Below are positions 4,961 through 53,191 of a DNA stretch of 64,000 bases, one piece after another (the first letter of the stretch is position 1; every line of letters begins with the position of its first letter). The DNA is taken from positions 29,218 through 93,217 of the forward strand of contig CAYVNS010000003.1 in the NCBI GenBank assembly GCA_964453225.1, given 5' to 3'. The notes under the pieces are model-generated. The model had not been told where the DNA came from and searched no databases. It saw only the letters and a program-made list of their open reading frames with translations. A program made the translations under genes and the position numbers. This DNA comes from an uncultured Rhodospirillaceae bacterium (lineage in GTDB: Bacteria > Pseudomonadota > Alphaproteobacteria > UBA9219).

Positions 4961-5677
4961 ATGCGCGTTCTGCTTGTCGAAGACGATACCTCCGTTGCAA
5001 AAAGCATCGAATTGATGCTGCAGGCCGATGGTTTCATCGTTGATACGACCGATTTGGGCGAAGATGGCCTCGAGATCGGTAAGATTTATGATTATGATAT
5101 CATCATTCTGGATTTGATGTTGCCCGATATTGACGGCTACGAAGTCTTGCGCCGACTGCGCGCCGCGCGCGTGACGACGCCTATTCTGATCCTTTCGGGC
5201 CTTTCCGAGCTTGATAACAAAATCAAGGGCCTTGGGTTTGGCGCGGACGATTATTTAACCAAGCCTTTCGATCGCCGCGAACTTGTGGCGCGCATCCACG
5301 CGATCATTCGCCGCAGCAAAGGCCATTCGGACAGCGTCATTCGCACCGGCAAGCTGGTTGTCAATCTTGACACGCGCACCGTCGAAGTGGATGGATCGCC
5401 CTTGCATCTGACGGGCAAGGAATACGGCATTCTGGAACTCTTGTCGTTGCGCAAAGGCACGACCTTGACGAAGGAAATGTTCCTGAACCATCTGTATGGC
5501 GGCATGGATGAGCCGGAGCTGAAGATTATCGACGTCTTCGTTTGTAAGCTCCGCAAGAAGCTTGCGACGGCAGCCGGCGGCGAAAATTACATCGAAACCG
5601 TGTGGGGCCGCGGGTATGTTTTGCGCGATCCGCCGGGAACCGAAGCCGCACGCGCATCGGCGGCGAAGATGGCCTGA
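4961..5677 (+). CDS. ctrA: Cell-cycle response regulator CtrA (OmpR-family)
   Basis: MRVLLVEDD...[25 protein letters not shown]...[32 protein letters not shown] is almost invariant CtrA sequence. Confidence 0.92.
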
Positions 5678-18194: not shown

Positions 18195-21100
18195 TTAGCT
18201 TATTTTCTTGGCGCCGGCGGTTGCCTGTGCTTCGAGCGTGCGGCTGACGGCGTCCGTTAAGCCATCCCCTGTCGCTTCGAGCTGCATCAGGATTTGGCCC
18301 AAGCTTCGCATCAGGTCTTCGCCTTGCGTTTTTAAGGCCGTTCTCATGCGGTCCGTGCGCTGCTGCATTTCATCGATGCTTTTGTTCATGCCGACGACCT
18401 GGTTGTGCGCGTCGCTGACGCCCTTGTTCAACGCGGTCGTTTGATCGTTGTAGATCTGGCCGATGCCGCGCATGATGCCCGCCGCCGTGTTGGCGCCGGC
18501 CGCCATGTTGCTCATTTGCGACTGAACGGCGGTGACGACTTCATCCAGCTTTTCGATGGCATGGACGCTGAGGTCGCCCGACAGGGCGCGCGTGTTTTCA
18601 ACCTTTTCGGCGATGGTGGACAGATGCGACAGGAGCTGTTGCAGATGTTCGAGCGCGCTGCCTTCTTGCGATTTGATGTCGGCGCCGGCCTGAGCCATGT
18701 GGTCGATCATTTGGTCGAACTTGCCGCTGAACGACGCCAGCAAGCGGCTGACCTCTTCCATCGACTGGCGCATTCTGTTCGTGCCCGCATCGACTTGCGC
18801 GACCGCCGTTGCGCCCGTTTCCTCAAACCGCTTGCTAACGCGTTCGACATCGGAGACCGCGCCGACCGTCGTGGAGCGCAGGCTTGTGCTTGTGCGTTCC
18901 AGTTGCGCCGTGATTTTCATCAGGCCGTTGCTGATTTCGTCGATCTGGCCTTGCAGCGCGCCACGGATGCTTTCCATGTGGTCGCGCAACGTATCGCCCG
19001 TCGTGACGATGCGGTTTTCGGCCCGCGTCGTCGCTTCGGAAATCGCCTCGATCTGCTTGACGATGCCTTCGCCGGCCTGCGCCAGGCGTCCGCCTGTCGT
19101 CGCCGCGCGCTGGTCGAGCTGGTCGAAATCGCGGACGAGGCGTTCCGCCGTCACCGTGGCTTCGTTTCTTAGGGTCAACAGGCGCTGGCCCGCTTCGGCA
19201 AGCGAATCGACGCCGACGCTGGCCTTTTCGATCAGATCGCGCTGTTCGCCCGAAAGCTTGGCCGTGCTTTGCTGCATGGCGGCCACTTGCTCGGCCAACA
19301 GCTGGTTGAAGCCGTTGAGGATGCGCCCGGCGTCTTCCGCAACGCCGCCGACGCGTTTCATCTCTTCGACCATATTGCTTCGCGTCGACGCGGTGACGGA
19401 GATGAAGCGATCCGCCGTGTCGATCATCGCCTTGTTGGCGTCCATCGACTGGGCTTTCAGCGCTCGCGCGGCCGTTTCAATATCGATGAGGCCTTCCTTC
19501 AACGTGGCGGGCAACTGCTTCGCCTCGTTCTTCAGGCTTTCCGAAACCTTCGCAAAGGCTTGTTCGGACTTGGCCAGGTTCGTGCGCAAGGTATCGTTCT
19601 GCATCGCCAGCGCCTTGGACGCGCCCAGCACATGCTCGGCCGCCTTATGCGACAGATCGGAGAGATGTTGCAGCTGGCCTTGCATCGCGCCTTTGACTTC
19701 TTCGATGCGCGACGCGGCCCGTTCGACGACTTCGTGGCCCGCTTTTTCCGTGGCGGTGATCGTATCGCGCAAGACAGCCAGGCGCGTTGTGGCGTATTCC
19801 GCCGCGTTGGCCAAGGCTTCCGTCTGCGTTTCGGCCTTGTCGCCCATCTCCCCCACCACGCGCAGGTGGGCGTGCATTTTTTCGCCGATGCTTGTCAGGC
19901 GGCCTTCGGATTGATCCAGCGTTTGCGACAAGGCTTCGGTTTGGCTGCGAATAAGCTCGGCGCCGTCTTTCGTGACTTCGGTGAAGCGCTTGGTCGTTTG
20001 ATCGAGCGACTGCACGGAATCGCGCAAATGGACGGCTTGTTCCCCGATGCCGGAAGCAGCGGAGACAATGCCGCGCAATTGTTGCTCGGCCTTCTGGCCT
20101 TCGTGATTCAGGGCCACCGCCTGCTGGGCGAAACCGCCGACCGACGCGGCGACATTGGCGAGCGTTTCCTGCGCCTTCGTTCCGATGGCGTCCATGCTGT
20201 GGGTGATGCTCGTCGCGCTTTCTTGCAGGCGCTCGGCCGTACGTTCCGCCGTGGCCGCCGTTTCGTTTTGCACGCCCATAAAGCGCGTGATGAGCCCGCC
20301 GATGGTATCGCGCTGCGAGTCCAACGCGATGGCAAGCGTTTTCTGCCGGTCGTCGATTTGCTGCAAGGCCTTGGCCAAAAGCCCCGCCTTTTCGCCGATG
20401 GATTGCTGAACCGAGGACAGCGTTTTTTCGGCCGAATATCCCGCTTCGTGCATATCATGCGCGCCGGCGGAGAGGCGGCCCAAAAGCGCGTCCAGGGTTT
20501 CGTTGGTTCGCTCGCCGTCGGCTTGCATGGACAGGCGCAGATCGTAGATCTGGCCGTGCAGGCTTGTCGTCGTCGAGAAGATGGTCTGCGCCTGTTCTTC
20601 GATGCGCTTGGCTTCGATATCGATGGCTTCGGCTTCCTTGGCGAAGGATTCCGTGGCCGTGCGGACGCTGCTAAGCGCGCTTTGCGCCCGCGTGTCGATA
20701 ACGTCGGCGCTGATGGCGATTTTCTGCGCGTCTTGCGTCAGGCGCGTGGTGAGGCGATCCGACGATTGGATCGTTTCCGCCTGCGCGTCGGCAAGCCGTT
20801 CGAACAGGGACTTGATGATCTCGCGCTGGGAATCGAGCGAGGTGCCGAGCTGTTGCTGGCGATCGTTGATCTGCTGAACCAGGGCGGCGAGCGCGGCGCA
20901 TTGCTGCGTCGCGTTGTTGCCGAGAGTCATCAGGGACATTTCCGTCGAGGAGCTGATGTCCCGCAGTTCAGCCGAACCCGCCGTAATCTTGCTGAGCAGC
21001 GAGCCGTAGACCGAGTTCGTGAGATCGCCCTCTTCGCGCAGCGTGGCGCACAACGCGCCCAGCTTTTCGTTGGCGCCGGAGGCGGACGTGACAATGACGC

Positions 21101-24100
21101 GCGCATCCTCTTCCGTTTGGCGCGCTTTCTTTTCGATGGATTCGGCCTCATAGGCGAACCCGGCCGTGGCTTTTTGCAGGCTGTTGAGGGCGTCGTGCGC
21201 GCGCCTGTCGATGGTGCCGACGCTGGTCGTGATTTGCGTCACGCTTTCGGTTAGACGATTGGCGGCGCGTTCGGCTACCGACGCCGTTTCCTCCTGAACG
21301 CCGGTAAGGCGCGACATCAAGCCGTCGATCACGTCGCGCTGGGCGTTAAGCGCCGTCGTCAGCGTGCGCTGGCGGTCGCCGATCTGATTCATGGAGACGT
21401 TCAATTCGCCCGCCTGCTGTTCGAGCGCGTGATGCAGCGTGGTGAGCGCGGCGTTTGTGCTGGCGCCGATGTCGCGCACGTCGCCGCCGCCTTTTGTCAG
21501 GCGTTCGAGCAGCATTTGCAGGCTTTCGCCCGCGCGTTCGCTTTCGTTTTGCAGGCTGAGGCGCAACTGGTGCGCCTGTTCCTGCAAGGCCGAGGTCGCC
21601 GTAAGGACGGTGCGCGCCTGCTGTTCCGCCGCCTGCGCGTTTTGAAGAAGGAGCGAGGCCTGATCGGTAAAGCCCATGCTGGCGATCTTGACGTTGCCGA
21701 TGGCGGCCTGGGATTTGTCGCCGACGTCGCCGACCTGGCGCTCGATATCCTTCAGCGCGCTGGACAGATAGGCGATGGTGCGCTCGGCAATGCCGGACGC
21801 TTCCGCGTGCGCGGCGCTGAGTTTGTCGAACAATTCGAACATCTGGACGCGTTGTTTCTCGGTGGATTCCGCCAAGACGCGTTGCTGCTCGCCGATTTGA
21901 TCGCCCACGACGGCCAACGTCGCCGCCTGCTGCGTAACGTGCGCGCCGAGCGTGGAGAGCGTTTTTTCCGCCCGTTCGGCCATGGCGTGCAGTTCCTGCG
22001 TGGATTTGTCGATCGTCTTCGTGCTGCCGGAGGCCATATCGTTAAAGCGCTGCGTCGCCTGATCGGCCCCGCGCGTCGCCGTGTCGGCCACCTGGCGCAG
22101 CTTGCCTTCCGCCCCCGTAAGACGCGCGACGGAATCTTCCAGGTGCGACAAAAGCAGGCTGTTTTCCTGTTCCATATTGACGCGGATGGACGAGGCTTGA
22201 TCGGTAAGCGTGCCCGTGGCTTTCGACAGCTGGTCGAGCAGACCCGCGATCTCTTGCCCGCCGTCGACGAGCTTGACCGTATGCTCGCCGAAGGTGCCGG
22301 CCGCGCCGACAATCGCGTCCGCCGCGGTTTGCGCCGCGTGGGTCATCGTGTTCGTGCGATCCTGGAACGCCGTGATGGTGTCGTCGAGCTTGGAGAGAGC
22401 CTTCTGGCTGTACATGAGCGAGGTTTCATGCGCCGCCGCCATTTTGGCGTTGAGCGTTGAGAGCGTTTCCGCCGCACGGTCGCTGCTGACGGAAATTTTG
22501 CCCGCGTGCATTTCGATTTTGGCCGCATCGGTGGCGATTTGATCGGCCTCGCGCTGCAGGGCGCTGTGCAGCGTGTCGACCTTAATCTGCGCCGCGTTGA
22601 CCGTTTGATCCATCTTATCGGTAACCTCGCTGTAACGCGTCGCGGCGCGATCCAAAAGGACATGCGCGGCGGAGGCGCGTTCGCGCACAATCTCGCCGAG
22701 CATCGTGAATTTTTGTTCAGCGCCGGTAAGATCGCTCGAAATGGCTTCGGTCTGCTGGCGCAGGAGCGTTTCGATACGCGACGCTTCCGCCGTAAGGGAA
22801 GAGGCGACATCCTTGACATGCGTTGCGGACGTCTTGGCCTTTTCCAGCATCTGGTAAGACTCTTCGCCCACGCTGCGCGCGGCCTGCTGTAAGCATTCGA
22901 GCGCATGCGCGGCCTGCCCGTCGAGACCTTGGGTTTCGCGTTTCAGGCTGTCGGACAAATCCGTGAACTGCGCCAGGGTCTGGCGCGCGGCGTCTTCCTG
23001 CGTCGCGCGGGCGGCGCCAAATCTTTCCTCGAGCGTTTCCAGCGCGAGCACGGTATCGGCGGTCGCGCGGCTCATTTGATGGCTCATGCCCTGAACGCGG
23101 GAATGGAAATCCTGCAGGCGGCCAACCTGGGTTGACAGGCCTTCGCCGTAAACGCCCAGCGATTGCAGCCCCTGCTCGGCGCTGGCACCAATGGCGTCCA
23201 CCGCCTTTTGCACCGGCGTAACGGCCTGCGCGGCGAAGCTTTGCATCTTTTGATCCGTCGTCGCCAACTGATTCTGCGTTTCGGACAAAAGGGTCAACAG
23301 GCCCGCTGAATGATCGCGCAAATTCTTGCTGGCGACTTCCGCCTGCGCTTGCAGTTTCTGCACCGCTTCGAGCAGAATCGCTTCGCTGGCGCGGGTTTTG
23401 CCCGAGAGATCGCTTTGCTGGCGGCCAAAATTCTCGGTGGCGGCGGAAATGGCGCGCGTGCTGAGCTGGACGGTCTCGCCAAGGCGCTGAACCATCTTTT
23501 CGTTCTGGGCCATGGCGTCGTTGATATCCTTGGCCAGCTTCTCGCCGACGCTTTGGGTCGCATCGCGCACGGAGAGGACGCGTTCGAGCACTTGCTGAAG
23601 GTTTTGCAAAGCGACGCTGGCGCGGGTTTCGACTTCCTTGCCGGCCTTGTTGGACGCGACGTTCAGTTCTTCGAACTGCGCCACATGGCGCGCTATTTCA
23701 TCGGCCATATTCTTCATATGGTCGTTGCTGTCGCTGGACAGGGTGCGCAAGCGCGTGAGCGCTCCTTCGTACTTGCCCGTCGTTTCATCCAGATGGGCGG
23801 CGATGGCTTCGGCATTCGCGCGCGCATCGTCATTAACGGCGGAGAAGCGCGCCATGGTGCCGTCGGTGCGCATATTAAGATCCGAGACCGATTTCTCGAA
23901 GGAATTGATGAACTCCGAGGTCGTGGAACCGACGCGGTCGATCAGATGGTTCAAATCGCTTTGGCGGCGGTCGAGGCTGGCGTCCACGTCCACAAGACGG
24001 CCCATAAAGCGCTCCATAAGCGTTTGGAGCCCATCTGCCTGATGCGCGAGATGGTCGCTGAGCTTATTGGCTTGCTCGTGCGCAAGCTGTTCGCTGGCGT

Positions 24101-25208
24101 AAAGGCGGTCGGCCACGCCGCGAAGGATGGATTCGGCTTCGCCGACACGCACGGGAAGCGTCGTGCTGAGATCTTCCAGCGTGCGGGTTTGAGCGTCGAG
24201 CGCGTGGGTCATGCGTTCGGACTCTTCGCGGGCGGCCGAGGCACGCTCTAAAAAGCGCGCGACGCTAAGATCGATTTTGCTCGAGAGGCCGCTGAGCGTT
24301 TCGCTGGCGGCTTCGGCGGCCGTCGAAAGGCTGGATTCTTGTAAACGGGACGTATCGGCAAGCCTTTGGGTATCGAGTTGGGCGCGTTCCAGCGATTGCG
24401 AGATTTGAACCGTTGCCTGCTCGACTTCCTCCAGCATTTTGGAGACCTGCTCCCCGATGCCTTCGACTTGACGCGCAACGCCGTCGCCGTTTTTCTGCAA
24501 TTTCCCGTCGAGAACGCGCAGCATCGTGAATTTATCGTCCATCATCTGTTCGATCTGGAACATGCTGCGGCGCACGACGTCCTGGATTTCCTTGACTTGC
24601 TGCGCGCTGACGTTTTCGAAGCGCTCCAGATCCGCCCGGTGCTGCTGCACGCGGTCCATGATGGCTTCCAGATCTTCCTGGCTGACGGATTGCGCGCTGC
24701 GCAAAAGGTCGATCTGCTCACGGATCGCCTGATTAAAACGGCGGATGCGCGCATCGGCCGCGCCGGACTCGCCCGTAATAAGCGTGAGCTGGCGGCGCAA
24801 GGGGTCGGCGACGGATTCAACGTCGGACGCGCGCTGCAAGTAAGCCGTGATCATCCAGATCATGGCGACGGGAGAAACGGATGCGGAAATGCCAATGGCC
24901 CAGTCGACCAGAGAAACGCCGCCCAGGGTACGCTCGGGGCCGGACGTGCCGATGATCGCGATAACGCCGGACACCCACGCAAGAGAAATGCCCAAGCCAA
25001 TCCAGAAAGGCAAAGACGATGCCTTGGATATTTTCGGAATCGATATCTTTTTTCCGGTCGGCGGCTTGATTGCTAGTGGTGCGGGCGTATGAGCAGGAGA
25101 AGAAGTTAGGGGAGTCTTCTGCAGGGCCATTTTGATCCTCGACATTCCGGTATTAATCCCGCAAAAAGCACATACGTTTCCCCGCTCGTTTCGAGAAGGG
25201 AACGACAT
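18195..25208 (-). CDS. Giant membrane-anchored coiled-coil protein (2,337 aa), two N-terminal TM helices, internal tandem repeats
   Basis: Uninterrupted 7,014-nt ORF. ATG at 25208; an alternative start MALQK at 25130 is preceded by GAGG. TM1 is FWIGLGISLAWVSGVIAIIG and TM2 is WAIGISASVSPVAMIWMITAYL. The remainder is Ala/Gln/Glu/Leu/Thr-rich helical sequence. A candidate hairpin terminator lies at ~18130-18170. Confidence 0.75.
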   Translation of the reverse strand: MSFPSRNERGNVCAFCGINTGMSRIKMALQKTPLTSSPAHTPAPLAIKPPTGKKISIPKISKASSLPFWIGLGISLAWVSGVIAIIGTSGPERTLGGVSLVDWAIGISASVSPVAMIWMITAYLQRASDVESVADPLRRQLTLITGESGAADARIRRFNQAIREQIDLLRSAQSVSQEDLEAIMDRVQQHRADLERFENVSAQQVKEIQDVVRRSMFQIEQMMDDKFTMLRVLDGKLQKNGDGVARQVEGIGEQVSKMLEEVEQATVQISQSLERAQLDTQRLADTSRLQESSLSTAAEAASETLSGLSSKIDLSVARFLERASAAREESERMTHALDAQTRTLEDLSTTLPVRVGEAESILRGVADRLYASEQLAHEQANKLSDHLAHQADGLQTLMERFMGRLVDVDASLDRRQSDLNHLIDRVGSTTSEFINSFEKSVSDLNMRTDGTMARFSAVNDDARANAEAIAAHLDETTGKYEGALTRLRTLSSDSNDHMKNMADEIARHVAQFEELNVASNKAGKEVETRASVALQNLQQVLERVLSVRDATQSVGEKLAKDINDAMAQNEKMVQRLGETVQLSTRAISAATENFGRQQSDLSGKTRASEAILLEAVQKLQAQAEVASKNLRDHSAGLLTLLSETQNQLATTDQKMQSFAAQAVTPVQKAVDAIGASAEQGLQSLGVYGEGLSTQVGRLQDFHSRVQGMSHQMSRATADTVLALETLEERFGAARATQEDAARQTLAQFTDLSDSLKRETQGLDGQAAHALECLQQAARSVGEESYQMLEKAKTSATHVKDVASSLTAEASRIETLLRQQTEAISSDLTGAEQKFTMLGEIVRERASAAHVLLDRAATRYSEVTDKMDQTVNAAQIKVDTLHSALQREADQIATDAAKIEMHAGKISVSSDRAAETLSTLNAKMAAAHETSLMYSQKALSKLDDTITAFQDRTNTMTHAAQTAADAIVGAAGTFGEHTVKLVDGGQEIAGLLDQLSKATGTLTDQASSIRVNMEQENSLLLSHLEDSVARLTGAEGKLRQVADTATRGADQATQRFNDMASGSTKTIDKSTQELHAMAERAEKTLSTLGAHVTQQAATLAVVGDQIGEQQRVLAESTEKQRVQMFELFDKLSAAHAEASGIAERTIAYLSSALKDIERQVGDVGDKSQAAIGNVKIASMGFTDQASLLLQNAQAAEQQARTVLTATSALQEQAHQLRLSLQNESERAGESLQMLLERLTKGGGDVRDIGASTNAALTTLHHALEQQAGELNVSMNQIGDRQRTLTTALNAQRDVIDGLMSRLTGVQEETASVAERAANRLTESVTQITTSVGTIDRRAHDALNSLQKATAGFAYEAESIEKKARQTEEDARVIVTSASGANEKLGALCATLREEGDLTNSVYGSLLSKITAGSAELRDISSSTEMSLMTLGNNATQQCAALAALVQQINDRQQQLGTSLDSQREIIKSLFERLADAQAETIQSSDRLTTRLTQDAQKIAISADVIDTRAQSALSSVRTATESFAKEAEAIDIEAKRIEEQAQTIFSTTTSLHGQIYDLRLSMQADGERTNETLDALLGRLSAGAHDMHEAGYSAEKTLSSVQQSIGEKAGLLAKALQQIDDRQKTLAIALDSQRDTIGGLITRFMGVQNETAATAERTAERLQESATSITHSMDAIGTKAQETLANVAASVGGFAQQAVALNHEGQKAEQQLRGIVSAASGIGEQAVHLRDSVQSLDQTTKRFTEVTKDGAELIRSQTEALSQTLDQSEGRLTSIGEKMHAHLRVVGEMGDKAETQTEALANAAEYATTRLAVLRDTITATEKAGHEVVERAASRIEEVKGAMQGQLQHLSDLSHKAAEHVLGASKALAMQNDTLRTNLAKSEQAFAKVSESLKNEAKQLPATLKEGLIDIETAARALKAQSMDANKAMIDTADRFISVTASTRSNMVEEMKRVGGVAEDAGRILNGFNQLLAEQVAAMQQSTAKLSGEQRDLIEKASVGVDSLAEAGQRLLTLRNEATVTAERLVRDFDQLDQRAATTGGRLAQAGEGIVKQIEAISEATTRAENRIVTTGDTLRDHMESIRGALQGQIDEISNGLMKITAQLERTSTSLRSTTVGAVSDVERVSKRFEETGATAVAQVDAGTNRMRQSMEEVSRLLASFSGKFDQMIDHMAQAGADIKSQEGSALEHLQQLLSHLSTIAEKVENTRALSGDLSVHAIEKLDEVVTAVQSQMSNMAAGANTAAGIMRGIGQIYNDQTTALNKGVSDAHNQVVGMNKSIDEMQQRTDRMRTALKTQGEDLMRSLGQILMQLEATGDGLTDAVSRTLEAQATAGAKKIS

Positions 25209-25560
25209 TGCCTTTTAGGGGCTAGATACTAAGGTTTATAACATAACAGTTTTTTGGGTCAGAATGGAAGCGTTAACAGAGATTAAGTGAAAAAATCTGT
25301 TAGCAACTTCAAAGGCGATACCCCTCGCAGCATTGATACGAATCCGGAATAATTGTGCACTCTCACCAATTTTTTGTGCGCAGCAAAGGTGCAGCATTTT
25401 TTAAGCAGGGCACTAAGACTGGCTGTTGGGGGTGGGACGCGGCTGACAGACTAGGGATAGGGCTTGGCCTTTGTTTTCGACGACAGTTGCGCCGGCCATT
25501 CAGGCGGGTTAACATTTGCCCGTGGACACCTTGCCTCCCCCTTCACGCCGGTTGCCGCTC

Positions 25561-26871
25561 ATGCTGCGGTTCAAGCGTCTTTTGCCGCGCAGCCTGTTTG
25601 GCCGCATGCTTTTGATTTTCGTTTTGCCGACCTTTATCATGTTGGCGGCCGCGACCTATGTCTTTTTCGAAAGGCACTGGTACACCGTTACCAAGCGGAT
25701 GACCTATGCGCTGGCCGGCGATGTCGCCTTTATCGTCGAGCTTCTGGAAAACAGCAAAAACATGGATACTTTCGAAGGCGTGAAGACCCTTGCCTACGAA
25801 AAGATGAATCTGACGGTCACCTTCATGCCGGGACAGACCTTGCCGCCGCGCACGTCACGGTATTTGGGACCTATCGGCGTCATTCTGAAACATGCCTTAA
25901 ACGACAATCTGTCATACAGCTATGTCCTTGATATGTCTTATGCGCCGGAGACCATCAGCGTGAAAGTGGGGGTTCCCGAAGGCGTTTATTCGATCCTTTC
26001 GCCGGAGCGGCGCGTTTACACGCCAACCACGAAGGTATTCATTATCTGGTTGACGGGGAGCTCTTTGCTTCTTACGACCATCGCCTTGATCTTTATGCGA
26101 AATCAGATCCGCCCTGTACGAAGGCTGGCCGAGGCGGCCGAGGCCATCGGCAAGGGGCGCGAGGTGCCCTGGTTTAAGCTGGAGGGGTCTTCCGAAGTAA
26201 GACAGGCTGGCTCGGCCCTGATGGTTATGCGGGATCGGCTTAAACGGCAGATTACCCAGCGGACGGCCATGCTGGCGGGCGTTTCGCACGATTTGCGCAC
26301 CCCCCTGACGCGCATGCGCCTTCAGATCGAACTTATGGGCGCAACCCCCGATACGGGCGAGCTTTTGTCTGACGTGGCCGAGATGGAGGATATGCTGAAC
26401 GCCTATCTGGCTTTTGCGCGAAGCGAAGAAGCCGAAGTGGCCCAGCCCGTTGATTTGCAGGAATTTTTATCCGAAATGGTCGCAACCGCACGCCGGCAGA
26501 ATCCGCATATCTCTTTGGCGGCCCCGGAAGGCATTAAGGTGATCATGCGCCGCAATGCCATGAAGCGGTGTTTAGGGAATTTGATCAATAACGCGCTTCG
26601 TTACGGGGCGCATGCGGAAGTTAAGGCCTCTGTGGCGGATCAGATCGCCACGATTACGCTGGACGACGACGGGCCCGGCATCGAAGCCGCGCGGCGCGAG
26701 GAAATGTTCCGGCCCTTTACGCGCATCGAGGAATCGCGCAATCCGGCAACGGGTGGCGTTGGGCTTGGCCTGACGATCGCCCGCGACATTGCCCGCTTTC
26801 ACGGCGGGGATGTTATTTTAGAAGATAGTCCTTTGGGCGGACTAAGGGCCCGGGTTTGGATTCCCGTGTAG
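25561..26871 (+). CDS. EnvZ/CenK-like sensor histidine kinase (2 TM, periplasmic loop, HAMP, HisKA, HATPase)
   Basis: MLRFKRLLPRSLFGRMLLIFVL aligns with the EnvZ N-terminus. H-box GVSHDLRTPLTRMRL; G-boxes DDDGPGI and GGVGLGL. No adjacent response regulator. Confidence 0.8.
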   Translation: MLRFKRLLPRSLFGRMLLIFVLPTFIMLAAATYVFFERHWYTVTKRMTYALAGDVAFIVELLENSKNMDTFEGVKTLAYEKMNLTVTFMPGQTLPPRTSRYLGPIGVILKHALNDNLSYSYVLDMSYAPETISVKVGVPEGVYSILSPERRVYTPTTKVFIIWLTGSSLLLTTIALIFMRNQIRPVRRLAEAAEAIGKGREVPWFKLEGSSEVRQAGSALMVMRDRLKRQITQRTAMLAGVSHDLRTPLTRMRLQIELMGATPDTGELLSDVAEMEDMLNAYLAFARSEEAEVAQPVDLQEFLSEMVATARRQNPHISLAAPEGIKVIMRRNAMKRCLGNLINNALRYGAHAEVKASVADQIATITLDDDGPGIEAARREEMFRPFTRIEESRNPATGGVGLGLTIARDIARFHGGDVILEDSPLGGLRARVWIPV

Positions 26872-46399: not shown

Positions 46400-47317
46400 A
46401 TGCCGACTCCTTCCTTGCCGACCGGGCCGCAGGCCGTTGATTCCGTCGTCGATGTGACCTTGTCGTCGTTTAAAACCGACGTCGTTGAAGCGTCAAAAAA
46501 GGCTTTGGTTCTGATCTCGTTCTGGGCTTCCTGGGAAGCTTCGGGAAAGCAGATAAACGCAACGCTTGAGAAAATGGCGCGCACCACGGGCGCGTTCAAG
46601 CTTGCCAAGATCGACGTCGATAAAAATCGGCCTGTCGTTCAACAAATGGGCGTGCAGGAGATTCCTGCCGTCTATGCCATTCACAAGGGCCGGCCCATCG
46701 ACGCGTTTTCGGGCGCGCTGCCTGAGGCCCAAATAAAGGCGTGGATTGACCGCCTTTTAAAAGCGACCGGCACGGAAAGCGAAGAGAAAACGGCGCAAGA
46801 AAACGCGCTTAAAAAGGCGCAGGACTTGCTGGCCGCGGGAGAAAGCGCATCGGCTGCGGCGCTTTATTCGACCATTCTAGAAAACCTACCGGACAACGCG
46901 GCGGCGTGGGCGGGGCTTGCCGCTTGCGCTATGAAGGAAGGCCACATTGAAAAAGCACGGCAGGTGCTGGAGTCCGTGCCGCCCGAAATTGTGAAAGACA
47001 CGGTTTTTGATTCCGTTCGTACAAGCCTAGAACTGGCCGATCAGGCGAAAGACGCGCCGCAGACGGAAGAGCTTGAACAAAGACTGGCTAAAAATCCTTT
47101 GGATCATGCGGCGCGTTTTGATTTGGCGCTTGCCACCTATGCCCAAGGGCGCCGCGAGGAAGCGGTCGATCATTTGCTGGAGATCGTCCGGCGCGACCGC
47201 AAATGGAACGACGATGGCGCACGAAAGCAGCTCGTGAAATTTCTTGAAGCCTTTGGAGCCGATGATCCTTTGACCCTTTCGACCCGGCGCCGCCTCTCCT
47301 CTCTTTTGTTTTCATAA
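46400..47317 (+). CDS. Thioredoxin-fold / TPR co-chaperone (YbbN/CnoX-like)
   Basis: N-terminal thioredoxin-like domain without CxxC (FWASWEASGKQ), followed by TPR repeats. Confidence 0.65.
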   Translation: MPTPSLPTGPQAVDSVVDVTLSSFKTDVVEASKKALVLISFWASWEASGKQINATLEKMARTTGAFKLAKIDVDKNRPVVQQMGVQEIPAVYAIHKGRPIDAFSGALPEAQIKAWIDRLLKATGTESEEKTAQENALKKAQDLLAAGESASAAALYSTILENLPDNAAAWAGLAACAMKEGHIEKARQVLESVPPEIVKDTVFDSVRTSLELADQAKDAPQTEELEQRLAKNPLDHAARFDLALATYAQGRREEAVDHLLEIVRRDRKWNDDGARKQLVKFLEAFGADDPLTLSTRRRLSSLLFS

Positions 47318-47659
47318 AAGACAAACAACCAATGAACGCATCGACGGCGGGTGACATGCTGTCGCGTCTCGCCCGTCATTTCATACGCCGGTTGGTCTTA
47401 CCCCCTTAAAGAACGAAGCGGTCGTTTCTTTGCCGGAACAAACCAGAGGTTTTTCTGCAACTCTGGCGGGTAAATTTCCCGGCCTGCGTTGACCGCAATA
47501 TTATTGCGTGATATGCAACCCCCGGTAGTTTACCGGTAGGTATAATTGACAACAACGCCGCTTTGGGTGGTGGCTTTACCCGCCCTTATTGCCTGCTTCG
47601 TTCTTTAATACCTAAAGGCGCCAACTTTACAGCCAATACGTGCGGAACCACTTGGGATT

Positions 47660-48271
47660 ATGTTGATTCAACCGTTTACCAAAAAGAATTTGAGCAACAG
47701 GCTGGACAACATCAATGTCATGGTTGTCGACGGTCGATCTAAGACAGGAAACCTGATCAAGTGCATTTTAAATCGGCTTGGATTTAGAAATGTGTTTATC
47801 GCAAACGATGCCTCTTCGGGCGTGCAGATCATCCGCGACAAAAAAATCGGCTTAGTGTTTGCCAACTGGGATTTGTACGTCTTGTCCAAGCCGCCGGTCA
47901 ACGACGCCGGAACCAAGCGCGAACCCGAAGTGCTTCCGTTAAACGGCGCCAAGTTCGTCGAGCGTTTGCGCGCCGCCCCTTCGTCCCCCAATCCTTTTTT
48001 GCCGGTGGTTATGCTTTTGCCTTTGGACGGCAGTTCCGAGGAAGTGGGTTTGGCGCGCGACTCCGGCGTCAACGAGGTCCTTCTGAAGCCTTTCTCGGCC
48101 GAGGACCTTTGCAAGAAGATTGTAACGATTATCGACGAGCCCCGGATTTTCATCAACTCGGGCCCCTATAAAGGCCCATGCCGCCGCATCGCCAACATTC
48201 CGATCCCCAGCAAAATGGAGCGGCGCGTGCGCGAAATTCGCTTTCTGCAACCCCTTCCACCCAAACGCTGA
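47660..48271 (+). CDS. Atypical single-domain receiver protein (REC-like, divergent acidic pocket, loop insertion, C-terminal extension)
   Basis: VMVVDG (DG rather than DD). Putative phospho-Asp in VFANWDL. A ~25-aa insertion precedes alpha3. Conserved Lys in VLLKPF. Confidence 0.5.
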   Translation: MLIQPFTKKNLSNRLDNINVMVVDGRSKTGNLIKCILNRLGFRNVFIANDASSGVQIIRDKKIGLVFANWDLYVLSKPPVNDAGTKREPEVLPLNGAKFVERLRAAPSSPNPFLPVVMLLPLDGSSEEVGLARDSGVNEVLLKPFSAEDLCKKIVTIIDEPRIFINSGPYKGPCRRIANIPIPSKMERRVREIRFLQPLPPKR

Positions 48272-48348
48272 CGGAGGGCCTATTGGACACGAAACCCCCG
48301 CCCGACCCAGGCTATCAAACGGAAATCTCCAAGGAAACAAGCTACGTC

Positions 48349-48864
48349 ATGGCCTACAAGCCGGATTATTCACTGAAAAGAACCATCGGCGTCGAGGTTG
48401 CGCTGAACGATATTTTCACGCGCGAAAAAATTGACGCGAGCAACAAGATTTTGGAAATCGGCCGAAACTGCTTCTTTATGGACGCCGAGGAAGAAGTCAA
48501 TACCATCGCGGAATTGATCGCGAAGCCGGACGAATCGGGCAAGAGCCTGCAAACCGCCGCTTCGCTTGCCGCCGCGCTGAAAGGCGAAGCGGAGATGTAT
48601 GGTTTTTCGCACATTTATAAAGTGTGCGCTTTTCTGATGGACGCCTGCGAGAGCCGCGAAAAGCCCGACATCAGAACGCCGCTTATTCTCGATCTGGTGA
48701 ACGCCCTCACATCGTCCATAAAGAAGAAAATTTCCGACGACGGCGGCAAGGAAGAAAAAGCCATTATGGCCAATCTTGCCTGCCTTGAAGCGCTCGCGAA
48801 GCCCAAAAGCAAAGAACCATCCCCACCGAAAAGCGAAAGAACCGCCGTATGTACGAAAACGTAG
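48349..48864 (+). CDS. Hpt-like small protein lacking the conserved phospho-acceptor His (candidate pseudo-Hpt)
   Basis: LAAALKGEAEMYGF resembles the Hpt HxLKGsaxxxG motif but has Ala in the His position. The start at MAYKP is chosen over the 48178 ATG. A 16-nt overlap joins it to the downstream receiver. Confidence 0.4.
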   Translation: MAYKPDYSLKRTIGVEVALNDIFTREKIDASNKILEIGRNCFFMDAEEEVNTIAELIAKPDESGKSLQTAASLAAALKGEAEMYGFSHIYKVCAFLMDACESREKPDIRTPLILDLVNALTSSIKKKISDDGGKEEKAIMANLACLEALAKPKSKEPSPPKSERTAVCTKT

Positions 48865-49328
48865 CTCGCTTTTCCCACGCCTGCATACTGGTCGTTGACG
48901 ACAGCGTTTTCGAGCGCCGGCTTATTTCGACGGCCTTGAAGAAAGCGGGGTTCAACAAAATCGAGGGTGCAAACGACGGGGTGGAGGCCTTGAAGAAAAC
49001 GTACGAGCTTCGCCCGGATCTTGTTCTGCTTGACCTGTGCATGCCGAATCTGGACGGGTTCGGCTATTGCGAAAAAGTGCGCGCCGACCGGCAACTGCTT
49101 CAGATGCCGATCATTGTGCAAACCGCCCTTGAGGACAGGAATTCCCGCTTGCGCGCGCTTTCAAGCGGGGCGAACGATTTCCTTCTCAAGCCGCTCGATA
49201 TGGATGAAGTGTCTTTGCGAATCTGCGTTCATATCGAAAACTATTTTATGCTTCATCAGCTAAAGGCCTTGCGGGACTATCTTGATTTTATTCCACGCAA
49301 GGAATGCGATTTGTCGGGCCGAGGCTAA
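48849..49328 (+). CDS. CheY-like single-domain response regulator (canonical)
   Basis: ILVVDDS, phospho-Asp in LVLLDLCMP, and the T and K residues are all present. Confidence 0.75.
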   Translation: MYENVARFSHACILVVDDSVFERRLISTALKKAGFNKIEGANDGVEALKKTYELRPDLVLLDLCMPNLDGFGYCEKVRADRQLLQMPIIVQTALEDRNSRLRALSSGANDFLLKPLDMDEVSLRICVHIENYFMLHQLKALRDYLDFIPRKECDLSGRG

Positions 49329-49405
49329 GAGCCAATCCCACTGGCCGGCAAAAAAGCCCAAGGGTCACCCCTTGGGCTTTACTTTTTGCCGGAATGAAGC
49401 CGGTT

Positions 49406-50272
49406 TTACTGTTTTTGGGCCGGCGCCTTCGAGGGAGGCGGCAGAGGCGATCCGTCGATGTTAAACTTTTCGACCTTAGCCTTCGCTTCCAGGGCCTTGA
49501 CCTCATCGTTCGTCATTTCCTGGCCGAGCTGATTGGCGATTTGATCCTTCACTTCGGCCATCGGCGGCGGTGCGGATTTACGCTTGTCTTCAACCTTGAT
49601 GACATGAAAGCCGAATTCCGTCTTGACCGGCTTGTCGCTGACCTGGCCGGTCTTCATGGCGAAGGCGGCTTCGGAGAAAGGCTTGACCATGGCGTCACGA
49701 ACAAAATAGCCCAAATCGCCGCCCTGCTTGGCGGAACCCGTGTCCTTGGACTTTTCTTCGGCCAGCTTGGCAAAATCGGCGCCGCCCTTAAGCTGCTTGA
49801 TGACGTCATTGGCTTCCGCCTCGGTCTTGAGAAGGATATGACGCGCGCGCACTTCGTCCTGCGGCTTGAACTTGGACGAAAGCTGGTCATAGCGTTCCTT
49901 GATCTTGGCGTCGGTGATCTTCGGCTCCACCTGCTTGTGGACGTAGGCCTCGGCAATAACCTGCGCTTCGAGAGCCTTCATGCGCTTTTGGATTTCGGGG
50001 TCATTTTGCATGCCGGCGGCATAGGCCTTTTGCGCGACGACCTTGGTTGCGATCATTTTATGAAGAATCTGGGGATAAAGGGCTTGCGGCGGCAACTGCT
50101 GGAGCTGCGGGCCGGCCATTTGCAGTTCGCGCAGGACATCGGAGCGGCGAAGCTCTTCGCCATTGACACGCGCAACGACGGGGTCGGACTTGGCTGCATC
50201 GTCGGCGGCCCAGACTGGCATTGCCAAAGCCCCCAAAAGGGCAACTGTGGCGAGGAGGACTTTTTTGGACAT
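49406..50272 (-). CDS. Parvulin-type peptidyl-prolyl cis-trans isomerase (SurA/PpiC-like), periplasmic
   Basis: Signal peptide plus parvulin domain HILLKTEAEANDVIKQLKGGADFAKLAEEKS...GGDLGYF. Confidence 0.75.
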   Translation of the reverse strand: MSKKVLLATVALLGALAMPVWAADDAAKSDPVVARVNGEELRRSDVLRELQMAGPQLQQLPPQALYPQILHKMIATKVVAQKAYAAGMQNDPEIQKRMKALEAQVIAEAYVHKQVEPKITDAKIKERYDQLSSKFKPQDEVRARHILLKTEAEANDVIKQLKGGADFAKLAEEKSKDTGSAKQGGDLGYFVRDAMVKPFSEAAFAMKTGQVSDKPVKTEFGFHVIKVEDKRKSAPPPMAEVKDQIANQLGQEMTNDEVKALEAKAKVEKFNIDGSPLPPPSKAPAQKQ

Positions 50273-50529
50273 TTTGCGAATCCTTTTGGTTTTCAAAGAT
50301 CGTATAGTTAAGAGCTAACGCCTCTTACGTCAAAGATCAAGCCCTACAAATGGGGCGGGATTAGGGCGAGTCGTCGATCGTTCGCGGCCGTAGACAGCGT
50401 TCGGTTCGCGGGCTGTTTCAAGAGCGGCGACTCCCTGTCGGAAATGCCGCTCTCCTGATTCGTTAAAGCGATTTTAACCTATGCGTGCAAACTGTTCGTT
50501 GAGTCTCTTTTTCCTCGCGGATCCTCTTT

Positions 50530-51399
50530 ATGAATCTGATTATCGGCTTTTTTACCGTCGTCCTTTGTACGCTGGTCACGTATGCGCTCGAAGGCGGCAA
50601 CATGAAGGTGTTGGTGGAAGCCGCGCCCGCCGAAGTCGTGATCATGGGCGGCACCGCCCTTGGCGGCTTTATCATCTCGAACCCGGTTATCGTTATCCGG
50701 CGCGTGGGGCGCGCTTTCGGCATGATCCTGCGAAAGCCCAAATTCAACAAGGAATCCTATATCGAGCTTTTGTGCCTGCTTTACCAGGTGTTTAAGCTCG
50801 CCAAGACCAAGGGGCTGTTGGTGCTTGAGCAACACATCGAAAATCCGCAAGACAGCTCGCTCTTTCAAAAATTCCCCGGTTTTTTGCGCGAGCACCACGC
50901 CGTTAGCTTTCTTTGCGACTACCTTCGGCTTGTTACCTTAGGGTCGGACAAACCTTACGAGCTGGAAGCCCTCATGGAAGAGGAGCTGGACGTGCATCAC
51001 AACGAAGCGGGTGGCGCCGTTAAGGCCGTTACGAATATCGCCGACAGCATGCCGGCCATCGGCATCGTTGCTGCCGTGCTCGGCGTTATCAAAACCATGG
51101 GCGCCATTTCCGAACCGCCGGAAGTATTGGGCGCCATGATCGGCGGCGCCCTTGTCGGAACTTTCTTGGGCGTGTGGACCGCCTACGGCATGTTTGGGCC
51201 TTTTGCCAATTCAATGGAAACCTTTTTCGCCGCCGAGGCAAAATACCTTCAGTGCATCAAAGTCGGGCTTTTGGCCCACTTGCAGGGTTTTGCGCCGTCC
51301 ATCTCCGTTGAATATGCCCGCAAGACGCTTCTGAGCGAGATCCGGCCCACATTTATCGAACTTGAGGAAGCGACGTCGGCCTTGCCGCCGCCGGCTTAG
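50530..51399 (+). CDS. motA: Flagellar motor stator protein MotA
   Basis: Four TM segments, a cytoplasmic loop and the conserved C-terminal plug region. 289 aa. Confidence 0.85.
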   Translation: MNLIIGFFTVVLCTLVTYALEGGNMKVLVEAAPAEVVIMGGTALGGFIISNPVIVIRRVGRAFGMILRKPKFNKESYIELLCLLYQVFKLAKTKGLLVLEQHIENPQDSSLFQKFPGFLREHHAVSFLCDYLRLVTLGSDKPYELEALMEEELDVHHNEAGGAVKAVTNIADSMPAIGIVAAVLGVIKTMGAISEPPEVLGAMIGGALVGTFLGVWTAYGMFGPFANSMETFFAAEAKYLQCIKVGLLAHLQGFAPSISVEYARKTLLSEIRPTFIELEEATSALPPPA

Positions 51400-52363: not shown

Positions 52364-53191
52364 TTATAACCCAGGCTTGATTTGCCGTGTCGGGGGCTCG
52401 CTTGGCGTCCGAGAGGGCTTGATGTTCTTATGCAAAGCCTTTGAATAAAATCGACAGGCCATGGCTGTAAAAAGAACAATACTGACAGCGACGGCTTGCT
52501 CTTTTGGCAGCACCTGATAGAGGCCGTAACAGGAAGCGACCAAGCCCGGCGCACCAATGCTTTCGGCAAGCGCGTTGGGGTTGTTTTTCAAATACTCCTT
52601 GCGATAGTTGGCGTCCGCTTTGATGCGCGCCAGAAAAGGGGCGTCTTTATCGAGCACGGGTTTCTCGACCTCTTCGCCTTGTTTTATGGTGCCGCGGATA
52701 CATGCGGACGTAAAATATAAAGCCGAGGCAATGGCAAGAGGTATATTGTGAAGAGCAAGCCCGGCAATCAAATAGCTGATGGAGGCCACCGCATCTATGG
52801 CCGTGCCGCTTTTTATGATCGTATCCCTTTGGCGAATTTGTTTTTCTTCTTTTTCAGTATAGGCTTCTTTTGCGGGAACGGCATCGATCGGTATCGTATA
52901 GATAATTGAGGAAAGGAAAAACAGGGTTAGGGCCACCCCCATCGCCACTTCCCCCATCGTGGCCGTTCCGCTGGTAACGTGGTTTAACGTTTGCAGGATT
53001 GTCGATGCGGCAGCGCCCGAATTTCCAATAATCTTGAGAGCGCCGGACAGATAAAGACCTTTGCGGCCCAGCATGTCCTTTGCCTTCGACCGTCGTTGTG
53101 CAATTTCAAATTGAGCTAGCTTAAAAAGGCCTGAGACGAACGGTTCTTCAGAAAACCGGCTTTCGTCCAATGTTACTTCATTCGAAGGCAC
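52364..53191 (-). CDS. Hypothetical membrane protein (275 aa) in an AT-rich islet
   Basis: Several hydrophobic helices. No recognisable family. Markedly lower GC than the flanking genes. Confidence 0.4.
   Translation of the reverse strand: MPSNEVTLDESRFSEEPFVSGLFKLAQFEIAQRRSKAKDMLGRKGLYLSGALKIIGNSGAAASTILQTLNHVTSGTATMGEVAMGVALTLFFLSSIIYTIPIDAVPAKEAYTEKEEKQIRQRDTIIKSGTAIDAVASISYLIAGLALHNIPLAIASALYFTSACIRGTIKQGEEVEKPVLDKDAPFLARIKADANYRKEYLKNNPNALAESIGAPGLVASCYGLYQVLPKEQAVAVSIVLFTAMACRFYSKALHKNIKPSRTPSEPPTRQIKPGL

Follow-up and report, generated by a model that had tools for sequence, protein, structure and literature searches.

A pseudo-receiver with a Cle-type arginine-rich tail and a pseudo-Hpt protein form a predicted phosphorylation-dead pair in an alphaproteobacterial operon

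Pseudo-receivers and pseudo-Hpt proteins are each already known. In plants, AHP6 keeps the Hpt fold with its phospho-His replaced by Asn, and it inhibits an otherwise active relay by competing inside it. The closest bacterial counterparts on the receiver side are the Cle proteins, CheY-type single receivers for which high-affinity binding of c-di-GMP and c-di-GMP-dependent binding to FliM are characteristic. The c-di-GMP peptide of CleD is laid out as DRR, 11 residues and [R/K]RxxD, and Ala substitution at Tyr163, Gly165 or Asp154 raised the peptide Kd 10- to 43-fold (PMC7382256). At the acceptor position of its receiver, CleD carries Glu (E70; PMC5677366). On the Hpt side, Caulobacter HmrX (CC_1220) is described as a CheA-P1-like protein, with residues His81 and Ala152 reported, that affects motility and holdfast (PMC11481889). 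The literature searched contains no description of a co-inherited, sometimes fused pair that has lost both phospho-sites while its docking surfaces were kept, and the Cle literature searched makes no mention of pairing with an Hpt-like protein.

Here, a locus with such a pair was analyzed within a 64-kb stretch of DNA from an uncultured alphaproteobacterium, referred to as a whole as the window (Table 1). The three same-strand open reading frames of the original prediction were recovered with unchanged coordinates, as was the 16-nt overlap between g2 and g3. An 11-nt gap separates the g1 stop codon from the TTG start of g2 and contains GGAGG (48273-48277), 5 nt before the start. Because of this gap, the overlap and the terminator-like hairpin that follows, g1, g2 and g3 are predicted to be co-transcribed as one operon, which the hairpin would close. 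Upstream of g1, a short block is almost unchanged when aligned with the corresponding regions of two relatives (L003 and L001), with divergent flanks on both sides, and may serve the operon as promoter or operator; the block had no match in Rfam, and an Rfam scan of 47200-50600 returned nothing, including no riboswitch upstream of g1. Compared with a relative at 69-88% amino-acid identity, for which dS is saturated, dN/dS was 0.04-0.08 for the three genes (0.043 for g1 and 0.042 for g3), and all three are real genes under strong purifying selection.

Table 1. Positions of the genes and sequence features of the operon within the window.
Feature	Position	Strand	Description
Candidate promoter/operator block	47488..47529	+	TTGACC and palindrome TTGC-N7-GCAA (47504-47518), upstream of g1
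g1	47660..48271	+	CheY-like pseudo-receiver, 203 aa
g1 insertion	47882..47938	+	~19 aa, residues 75-93, LSKPPVNDAGTKREPEVLP; beta3-alpha3 loop, beside former active site
g1 arginine-rich (ARR-like) tail	48140..48235	+	P161-R162 ... Y170-K-G-P-C174-R175-R176, 11 aa, E187-R188-R189-V-R-E192
g2	48283..48864	+	Pseudo-Hpt, 193 aa, TTG start, five-helix CheA-P1-like bundle
Former phosphotransfer site of g2	48571..48606	+	A97-A-L-K-G-E-A-E-M-Y-G-F; Ala97 for His of HxxKG
g3	48849..49328	+	Canonical single-domain receiver, 159 aa, ~35-aa C-terminal extension
Intrinsic-terminator-like hairpin	49353..49380	+	12-bp stem then T-run; between g3 and convergent ppiC-type gene

The g1 product was identified as a single CheY-type receiver, with a weak match to Pfam Response_reg (32.3 bits, cutoff 30.2) and CheY proteins as its best matches in both PDB and NCBIfam. 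Where CheY has the quintet D12, D13, D57, T87 and K109, g1 has D24, G25, N69, L120 and K143. It had been proposed from the sequence that g1 is receiver-like with DG replacing DD, which was upheld (motif 'VVDG'), and that it keeps both the phospho-Asp and the conserved Lys. The Lys is indeed retained (Lys143), as is Asp24, but the acceptor position is occupied by Asn69 in three independent alignments to CheY and in a multiple alignment ('faNWDl' versus 'vtDWNm'); the residue previously taken for the phospho-Asp is Asp71, which sits at the position of CheY Asn59. With Asp57, Asp13 and Thr87 replaced by Asn69, Gly25 and Leu120, g1 is therefore a pseudo-receiver, a member of the receiver fold family whose phosphorylation site has been lost. 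The predicted insertion and C-terminal tail are both present, at ~19 and ~45 aa rather than ~25 and ~50 aa. CheY, g3 and two canonical relatives (L004 and L009) lack the insertion, which was found with variable sequence in L003, L007, L012, L014, L017, L019 and P0033. In alpha4, Arg133 of the 'ARD' motif is invariant across all g1-type receivers in the multiple alignment and lies no more than one residue away from where the numbering of CleD would put its R113, a placement made by residue numbering.

The tail connects g1 to the Cle proteins. A profile built from nine such tails had the CleD peptide (6sft) as its sole match in PDB (E 8e-7), and the motif [YF]xGP[DEC][RK]R has a single occurrence in all six frames of the window, which is the g1 tail. 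In both g1 and Cle proteins, 'PR...[YF]xGP[D/C]RR...RRxx[D/E]' follows straight after alpha5 of a CheY-type single receiver, an alpha4 Arg appears to be conserved, and the family is essentially alphaproteobacterial. The layout of the CleD peptide is preserved in g1, with 11 residues again separating the two Arg pairs and with equivalents of R155, R156 and R169. Compared with the tandem [YF]xGP[DE][RK]R of Cle proteins, the first repeat reads YKGPCRR and the N-flanking Arg162 is present, whereas the second [YF]xGP repeat is gone, leaving ERR followed by Glu192. In an alignment to CleD numbering, Tyr163, Gly165 and Pro166 correspond to Pro, Lys and Met in g1, and Asp154 corresponds to Cys; the beta3-alpha3 insertion is a further difference from CleD. 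Judged by this comparison, the g1 tail is a homologue of the arginine-rich peptide with which Cle proteins bind c-di-GMP, and only one half of its motif is canonical. Since the second half is degenerate at positions relevant for affinity in CleD, g1 may bind c-di-GMP weakly or not at all, and 'ERRxRExR', which is conserved in the tail, may have another role. A c-di-GMP input to g1 would follow by analogy with the Cle proteins. CleD acts independently of phosphorylation, and g1 is predicted to do so as well, with Asn at the acceptor position where CleD has Glu.

The g2 product has the four-/five-helix bundle fold of Hpt and CheA P1 domains and passes the Pfam Hpt model (PF01627) marginally, at 25.2-25.6 bits against a threshold of 24.6. 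Its motif, LAAALKGEAEMYGF, has Ala97 (codon 48571-48573) where HxxKG has the phospho-His; Ala97 stands opposite His45 of CheA P1 by alignment and opposite the invariant H81 of a sister family by profile-profile alignment. The Hpt-like fold and the exchange of His for Ala had both been anticipated and were confirmed. Another start or an upstream extension had been named as possible objections; the start was corrected to TTG 48283, and with it the His position is Ala97. This start was assigned because of the GGAGG 5 nt upstream and the N-terminal 'DTKxPxDPGY', which is conserved in relatives. Two other starts were considered and rejected, ATG 48178, which would overlap g1 in a different reading frame and is unconserved, and ATG 48349, whose codon is Val in relatives and is preceded by conserved peptide. 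Among 67 family representatives, the His column contains Phe (13), Ala (9), Tyr (8), His (6 of 67) and other residues, while positions +2 to +11 from this column keep the pattern I-K-G-Q-A-E-x-[LF]-G-[FY]. The closest relatives of g2 share no conserved His, and even among them the sole His of g2 (FSHIYK) is not kept. Overall, g2 is an Hpt-fold protein that is predicted to lack His-Asp phosphotransfer activity. It differs from the P1 domains of R. sphaeroides CheA3 (CheA3P1-CheY6, 3kyj) and T. maritima CheA (1tqg) in being a stand-alone protein without kinase domains or the His, and in having an additional conserved N-terminal segment, AYxPDxxLKxxIG. As with AHP6, a His-replaced Hpt fold presumably serves to bind partners rather than to relay phosphate; g2, however, belongs to an unrelated lineage, has Ala at the site, and has a receiver partner that is dead as well and is co-inherited or fused with it.

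In support of the Hpt fold of g2, Pfam Hpt was matched by 27/67 family members and otherwise there was one weak match, to VEG (E 0.0095); NCBIfam holds no g2-specific model. A word-indexed protein search with g2 alone found three close relatives only, and a contig scan built on them led to one MAG. Searches of plasmids with g2 and P0077 (tblastn) gave zero matches, and metagenome contigs held no match to a degenerate DNA pattern for NIKGQAExFGF.

To describe the association between the two proteins, we defined the class "ARR-tailed receiver + P1-like Hpt" as a receiver with a 'PR...Y.GPCRR' tail that either directly precedes or is fused with a P1-like Hpt of 160-190 aa carrying N-terminal 'PxxxLKxxxG', and g1 and g2 belong to it. 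A g1-like receiver lies immediately upstream of the g2 relative at all loci with sufficient flank (L001-L003, L007, L012, L014, L017 and L019). Receiver-Hpt fusions occur in P0033, P0050 and four tandem paralogues in L020, the latter with Glu at the Asp57 position as in CleD, and the same degenerate architecture is found in about 70 clusters at 50% identity. g1 and g2 thus represent a conserved, sometimes fused pair. In contrast, g3 accompanies the pair solely in the window's own clade (L001-L003).

The His-less family aligned to a His-bearing Hpt family with 99.2% in hhalign (E 3.7e-19, 148 columns). In a census of 80 metagenomic loci of the His-bearing family, each of the 64 with enough flank (64/64) has a receiver 12-20 nt upstream; 56 of these receivers carry the tandem arginine-rich motif, and D12, D13, D57, T/S87 and K109 are present wherever they could be aligned. 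The comparison thereby reveals a strictly conserved operon of a Cle-type arginine-rich receiver and a P1-like Hpt. In this P0077/P0079 family, with an ARR-tailed receiver and a 160-aa His-bearing Hpt, gene order and the tight gap are shared with g1-g2, the Hpt is homologous to g2 over its full length, and the receiver has 'SPNPF.P', 'ARDAG.NE' and 'PR..V....Y.GPCRR' in common with g1. This operon keeps the invariant H81, the receiver quintet and the tandem motif, whereas the window pair has lost the phosphotransfer residues. By these sequence relationships, the g1-g2 pair descends from an operon that is abundant in alphaproteobacteria and has fully canonical sites. A strict rule of co-loss, under which His and receiver sites would always disappear together, did not hold: L019 has NS at the DD position of its receiver and a partner Hpt with His, and L017, with a DN receiver, likewise breaks it. 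The two kinds of loss are not strictly correlated, which speaks against the reading favoured below.

We lean, by a small measure of confidence, towards reading g1-g2 as a phosphorylation-dead derivative of this ancestral pair that works as a phosphorylation-independent complex of the receiver/Hpt type, with binding itself as the signal. The ancestor would have been a Cle-type, arginine-rich-tailed CheY-like receiver whose gene sat just before that of a CheA-P1-like Hpt. Purifying selection still acts on the receiver fold, Lys109, the Arg of alpha4, the tail and, in the Hpt, the surface surrounding the former His (xxLKGxAExxGF), and g1 and g2 would bind through the ancestral docking interface, so that binding and not phosphotransfer carries the signal and the old His-Asp docking interface survives purely as a protein-protein interface. 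Gene adjacency and fusion are the basis on which we infer a physical complex. The arginine-rich tail, which forms the linker in the natural fusions, would probably bind the ligand, which for Cle proteins is c-di-GMP, and could regulate the complex or how it reaches a target. Probably coupled to g2 in translation, g3 would probably receive phosphate from an unlinked kinase and dock on the same g2 surface, coupling a phospho-signal to the g1/g2 switch; this docking is speculative because other lineages have no counterpart of g3. Such a pair would show how an interface from two-component signalling can be reused solely for switching by binding. The original prediction had raised a function as adaptor or decoy, which is plausible for the module.

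A broader reading is offered more tentatively, and we hold it to be possible but doubtful. It takes the operon as an undescribed and widespread one in which a Cle-type c-di-GMP receiver is the phosphotransfer partner of a stand-alone P1-like Hpt, possibly of the HmrX family, and supposes that in the window lineage it became a phosphorylation-independent switch, gated by c-di-GMP and competing with g3, that integrates c-di-GMP and phospho-signals for motility. The P0077/P0079 family is possibly that of Caulobacter HmrX, matched by description and by residue numbers, as P0077 has His81 and Ala152. If the Hpt family includes HmrX, the Hmr pathway of motility and holdfast would connect to the Cle effectors of the flagellar motor, and one small receiver would be the meeting point of c-di-GMP and phosphorylation. 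The variant in the window is itself rare and known from metagenomic relatives only.

The remaining gene, g3, encodes the canonical receiver that had been predicted, with the full quintet (D17, D18, D62, T92 and K114) and 92.7 bits against Pfam Response_reg. By its distribution, g3 is a clade-specific addition, and by its residues it is the only component of the module predicted to be phosphorylatable. The Cle-type tail of g1, the canonical descent of the g1-g2 pair and its fusions, and the restriction of g3 to one clade were not part of the original prediction. One alternative gives g3 a central place, with g2 modulating the lifetime of g3~P either as a helical phosphatase of the CheZ/Spo0E kind or as a shield that, like Ypd1, stabilises the phospho-receiver, and g1 acting as regulatory competitor. 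Hpt proteins are able to shield phospho-receivers, the 16-nt overlap suggests translational coupling of g2 and g3, and the surface that g2 would turn to a receiver is conserved, with Gln common at His+5 (33/67 representatives). We nevertheless regard this as unlikely: g3 is missing from all other lineages with a g1/g2 pair or fusion, and the conserved function of g2 therefore cannot depend on it, while the same Gln is found in the His-bearing and presumably phosphotransferring family (HD[IM]KGQ) and is therefore not a phosphatase signature.

The absence of a linked kinase, correctly foreseen (the nearest HisKA/HATPase ORF lies at 25516-26871 of the window), also bears on the proposal of a non-canonical phosphorelay or phosphate sink, in which g1 would be phosphorylated, g2 would inhibit the relay as a pseudo-Hpt and g3 would drain phosphate. 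It fits this proposal, as do the likeness of His-less g2 to the plant inhibitor and the fully canonical g3, which could be a sink. However, with Asn, Gly and Leu at the positions of Asp57, Asp13 and Thr87, g1 lacks the acceptor, one Mg-binding Asp and the Thr and would be unable to join a relay, g2 has no conserved His, and the pairing and fusions of g1 and g2 point to a dedicated complex rather than a free inhibitor of another relay. A relay or sink through g1 and g2 thus went unsupported and seems improbable to us, and no evidence pointed to the suggested feed into CtrA. We give very little credence to phosphate transfer through non-canonical residues, for instance from or to g1 Asp71 and another residue of g2. 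Asp71 is only two residues off the canonical site, and Lys143 and Asp24 are kept, but relatives that retain Asp57 likewise have an acidic residue (Glu or Asp) where g1 has Asp71, which is therefore no displaced acceptor; moreover, Gly25 and Leu120 abolish Mg-binding and catalytic residues, and the lone His of g2 is unconserved. That g1 and g2 have no signalling function and are what is left of a duplicated two-component pair in decay, as loss of both catalytic sites and marginal Pfam scores might suggest, is scarcely credible given the low dN/dS (with dS saturated), the strong conservation of non-catalytic motifs, and the persistence of the degenerate architecture in many clusters, fusions and tandem paralogues.

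For the preferred binding-switch reading, the output probably concerns motility. The analogy with Cle proteins suggests this, as does the gene context, which hints weakly at a chemosensory or motor link. The majority of other g1/g2-type loci have surroundings without motility genes (luxRI, housekeeping genes). In the window, motA and motB lie 1.2 kb downstream of the module, a weak link given the convergent gene and the terminator in between; elsewhere, L007 adjoins a cheA-W-Y-B-R operon and L017 adjoins cheD.

The receiver-like g1, first of the three same-strand genes of the module, scored barely above the cutoff of Pfam Response_reg (32.3 bits, cutoff 30.2), and its closest solved structures are CheY proteins. 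Alignments to CheY structures, and a multiple alignment that included CheY, placed g1 'FANWDL' opposite CheY 'SDWNM', with Asn69 at the position of CheY Asp57, Gly25 at Asp13 and Leu120 at Thr87. CheY Lys109 is retained as Lys143, and Trp58 is also conserved. The original prediction was largely right, having recognized DG in place of the DD pair and the conserved Lys, but its claim that g1 keeps the acceptor Asp was wrong; the insertion that it placed before alpha3 was found in the beta3-alpha3 loop, although at ~19 rather than ~25 aa. Asp71, at the CheY Asn59 position, was ruled out as a shifted acceptor because an acidic residue (Glu or Asp) occupies that position even in relatives that retain Asp57. 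The third gene, g3, matched Response_reg with 92.7 bits and has D17, D18, D62, T92 and K114, as anticipated for a canonical receiver.

The middle gene, g2, matched Pfam Hpt marginally (25.2-25.6 bits, threshold 24.6), with Ala97 (codon 48571-48573) at the His position of HxxKG. An exhaustive profile search identified 73 representative members of the g2 family, with lengths of 155-180 aa in almost every case; across this family the His column is variable (F13, A9, Y8, H6, L6, others) and the I-K-G-Q-A-E-x-[LF]-G-[FY] stretch just after it is conserved. A conserved His was sought among the closest g2 relatives and none was found. Pfam Hpt was matched by 27 of 67 family members, the sole other match being a weak one to VEG (E 0.0095), and the structure prediction called for as a fold check (AF2, 67-sequence alignment) returned a helical bundle of five helices with a pLDDT of 86.3. 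Thus g2 is a pseudo-Hpt as first proposed, an Hpt fold without the phospho-His, and its evolutionary and functional setting is now clearer. With the acceptor Asp of g1 and the His of g2 both gone, the suggested phosphorelay or phosphate sink is unsupported.

The three genes are organised as one operon, followed by the hairpin with its T-run. The most likely start of g2 is a TTG 11 nt past the g1 stop and 5 nt past GGAGG, which gives the protein its 193 aa. A 'DTKxPxDPGY' peptide between this codon and ATG 48349 is conserved in the g2-related proteins P0001, P0002 and P0004. ATG 48349 is the first ATG, but all three proteins have Val at that codon and it was rejected as the start. Against L003, the orthologous locus in the MAG of an uncultured Rhodospirillaceae bacterium, pN was far below pS in all three genes and dN/dS was low (g1 0.043, g2 0.082, g3 0.042; dS saturated), so g1, g2 and g3 are all functional genes. 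The non-catalytic surfaces of g1 and g2 are under purifying selection.

Features of the module and other features of the window
Feature	Position	Strand	Remarks
g1	47660-48271	+	ORF, 203 aa
g2	48283-48864	+	ORF, TTG start most likely, 193 aa
g3	48849-49328	+	ORF, 159 aa; 16-nt overlap with g2
Hairpin	49353-49380		12-bp stem and T-run, 3' of g3
Near-invariant block	47488-47529		Upstream of g1; includes TTGACC and palindrome TTGC-N7-GCAA (47504-47518)
Thioredoxin-TPR gene	46400-47317		TPR_19/TPR_20
Orphan histidine kinase	25516-26871	+	HisKA/HATPase
Response regulator	4961-5677	+	OmpR-type
2337-aa ORF	18195-25208	-	No Pfam match at E<=1e-6
275-aa ORF	52364-53191	-	Directly after motB; no Pfam match

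Full-length homology (hhalign 99.2%, E 3.7e-19, 148 columns) links the His-less g2 family to an abundant sister family of 160-aa Hpt proteins in which His81 is invariant. Among 80 metagenomic loci of this His-bearing family, 64 extended upstream by 560 nt or more, and in 64/64 a receiver ends 12-20 nt before the Hpt gene. These receivers carry the arginine-rich motif in tandem (56) or singly (8) and, wherever aligned, D12, D13, D57, W58, T/S87, F106 and K109. Because a His81 family is thus preceded by tailed receivers bearing D57, the ancestral state appears to have been a competent Hpt-to-Asp pair whose receiver already had a Cle-type tail, from which g1/g2 would derive by loss of both phosphotransfer ends. 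We regard this phosphorylation-dead descent as on balance probable. The loss is imperfectly coupled across lineages, as L017 and L019 have the His and partly degenerate receivers.

Wherever a locus extended far enough, a g1-type receiver was encoded directly upstream of the g2 relative (L001-L003, L007/8, L012, L014/15, L017, L019), and these receivers have in common 'SSPNPF.PV', 'ARD[AS]G[VI].E' and the tail 'PR.F....Y.GPCRR...ERR.RE.R'. Both parts are fused in a single protein in P0033. Each of four tandem paralogous genes at L020 (2408-7071, 356-367 aa each) likewise joins a Cle-like receiver to a His-less Hpt-like domain through an arginine-rich peptide (Y.GP[DN]RRR); the receivers read 'SEW', with Glu at position 57 like CleD E70. 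A histidine-phosphatase-family gene and ppk/ppx adjoin these fusions. g3 follows g2 in the window's own clade only.

The g1 tail, EPRIFINSGPYKGPCRRIANIPIPSKMERRVRE, aligns with the peptide KPREWVEAVAYVGPDRRRFNSADYKGPRKRKAD by which Caulobacter CleD sequesters c-di-GMP (PMC7382256), and its motif was found once in six frames of the window. Searched against the whole PDB, a profile of nine g1-type receiver tails gave the CleD peptide (6sft, E 8e-7) as its one significant match. The tails are homologous: both carry an N-flanking Arg ahead of the first Y-x-G-P-x-R-R, then an 11-residue spacer, then R-R-x-x-E in g1 and K-R-x-x-D in CleD. In contrast, g1 lacks the second aromatic-x-G-P and has Cys for CleD Asp154. 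Ala substitutions at these positions cost the CleD peptide 10- to 43-fold in affinity (PMC7382256), so binding of a c-di-GMP-type ligand by g1 is plausible but uncertain.

Each step of a possible mechanism is less probable than the descent itself. g1 and g2 would bind through the ancestral receiver/Hpt interface, and the arginine-rich tail, an inter-domain linker in the fusions, would bind c-di-GMP or a related ligand and modulate the complex. As the sole phosphorylatable part, g3 might dock on g2 and convey the phospho-signal of an unlinked kinase; the module holds no kinase, as predicted, and the nearest HK ORF is 21 kb off. Outside the module, the two-component genes seen in the window were limited to the orphan kinase and the OmpR-type regulator, neither of which adjoins it. 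Motility is a conceivable output by analogy with Cle proteins, which bind c-di-GMP through the arginine-rich peptide and then FliM independently of phosphorylation (PMC5677366), and from motA/motB 1.2 kb downstream (beyond a convergent PpiC-type rotamase gene), L007 beside a che operon and L017 beside cheD. Other module contexts (luxRI, housekeeping genes) give it no support.

Among described proteins, the closest to g1 are the Cle family and to g2 CheA P1/Hpt, with plant AHP6 a functional analogue only. Caulobacter HmrX, a putative P1-like Hpt with His81 and an A152T suppressor, acts on swimming and holdfast (PMC11481889). His81 and Ala152 are present in P0077 of the His-bearing family, and these shared residue numbers are suggestive of a family that includes HmrX. 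The open-access literature yielded no description of an arginine-rich-tailed receiver/Hpt pairing or of a bacterial pseudo-Hpt/pseudo-receiver pair.

Between the window and L003/L001 the block upstream of g1 has hardly changed, with flanking intergenic DNA diverging, and it may be a candidate operator for some regulator. The thioredoxin-TPR gene adjoins the module in the window clade; in the distantly related L014 lineage, one also lies nearby on the other strand (L014 1-701). A luxR/luxI pair (autoinducer-binding regulator and synthase) lies just upstream of the module in two lineages (L013 3316-4792, L014 1133-2602); L013 also carries a CheB-CheR-PAS-HisKA-HATPase-receiver hybrid kinase. A convergent SLT-type lytic transglycosylase gene directly downstream of the Hpt gene (L004 6477-7304, L009 4239-5075, L012 5936-6862) occurs in the His-bearing family and one His-less member and may represent conserved synteny.

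The 2337-aa ORF is genuinely coding, as its GC3 is 0.765 (regional GC 0.59-0.63, + strand AT skew ~ -0.25). Its N-terminus looks hydrophobic, with membrane segments by eye, and the remainder is Ala/Leu/Ser/Thr/Gln/Glu-rich with a coiled-coil-like composition. The hydrophobic-looking 275-aa ORF suggests several membrane segments.
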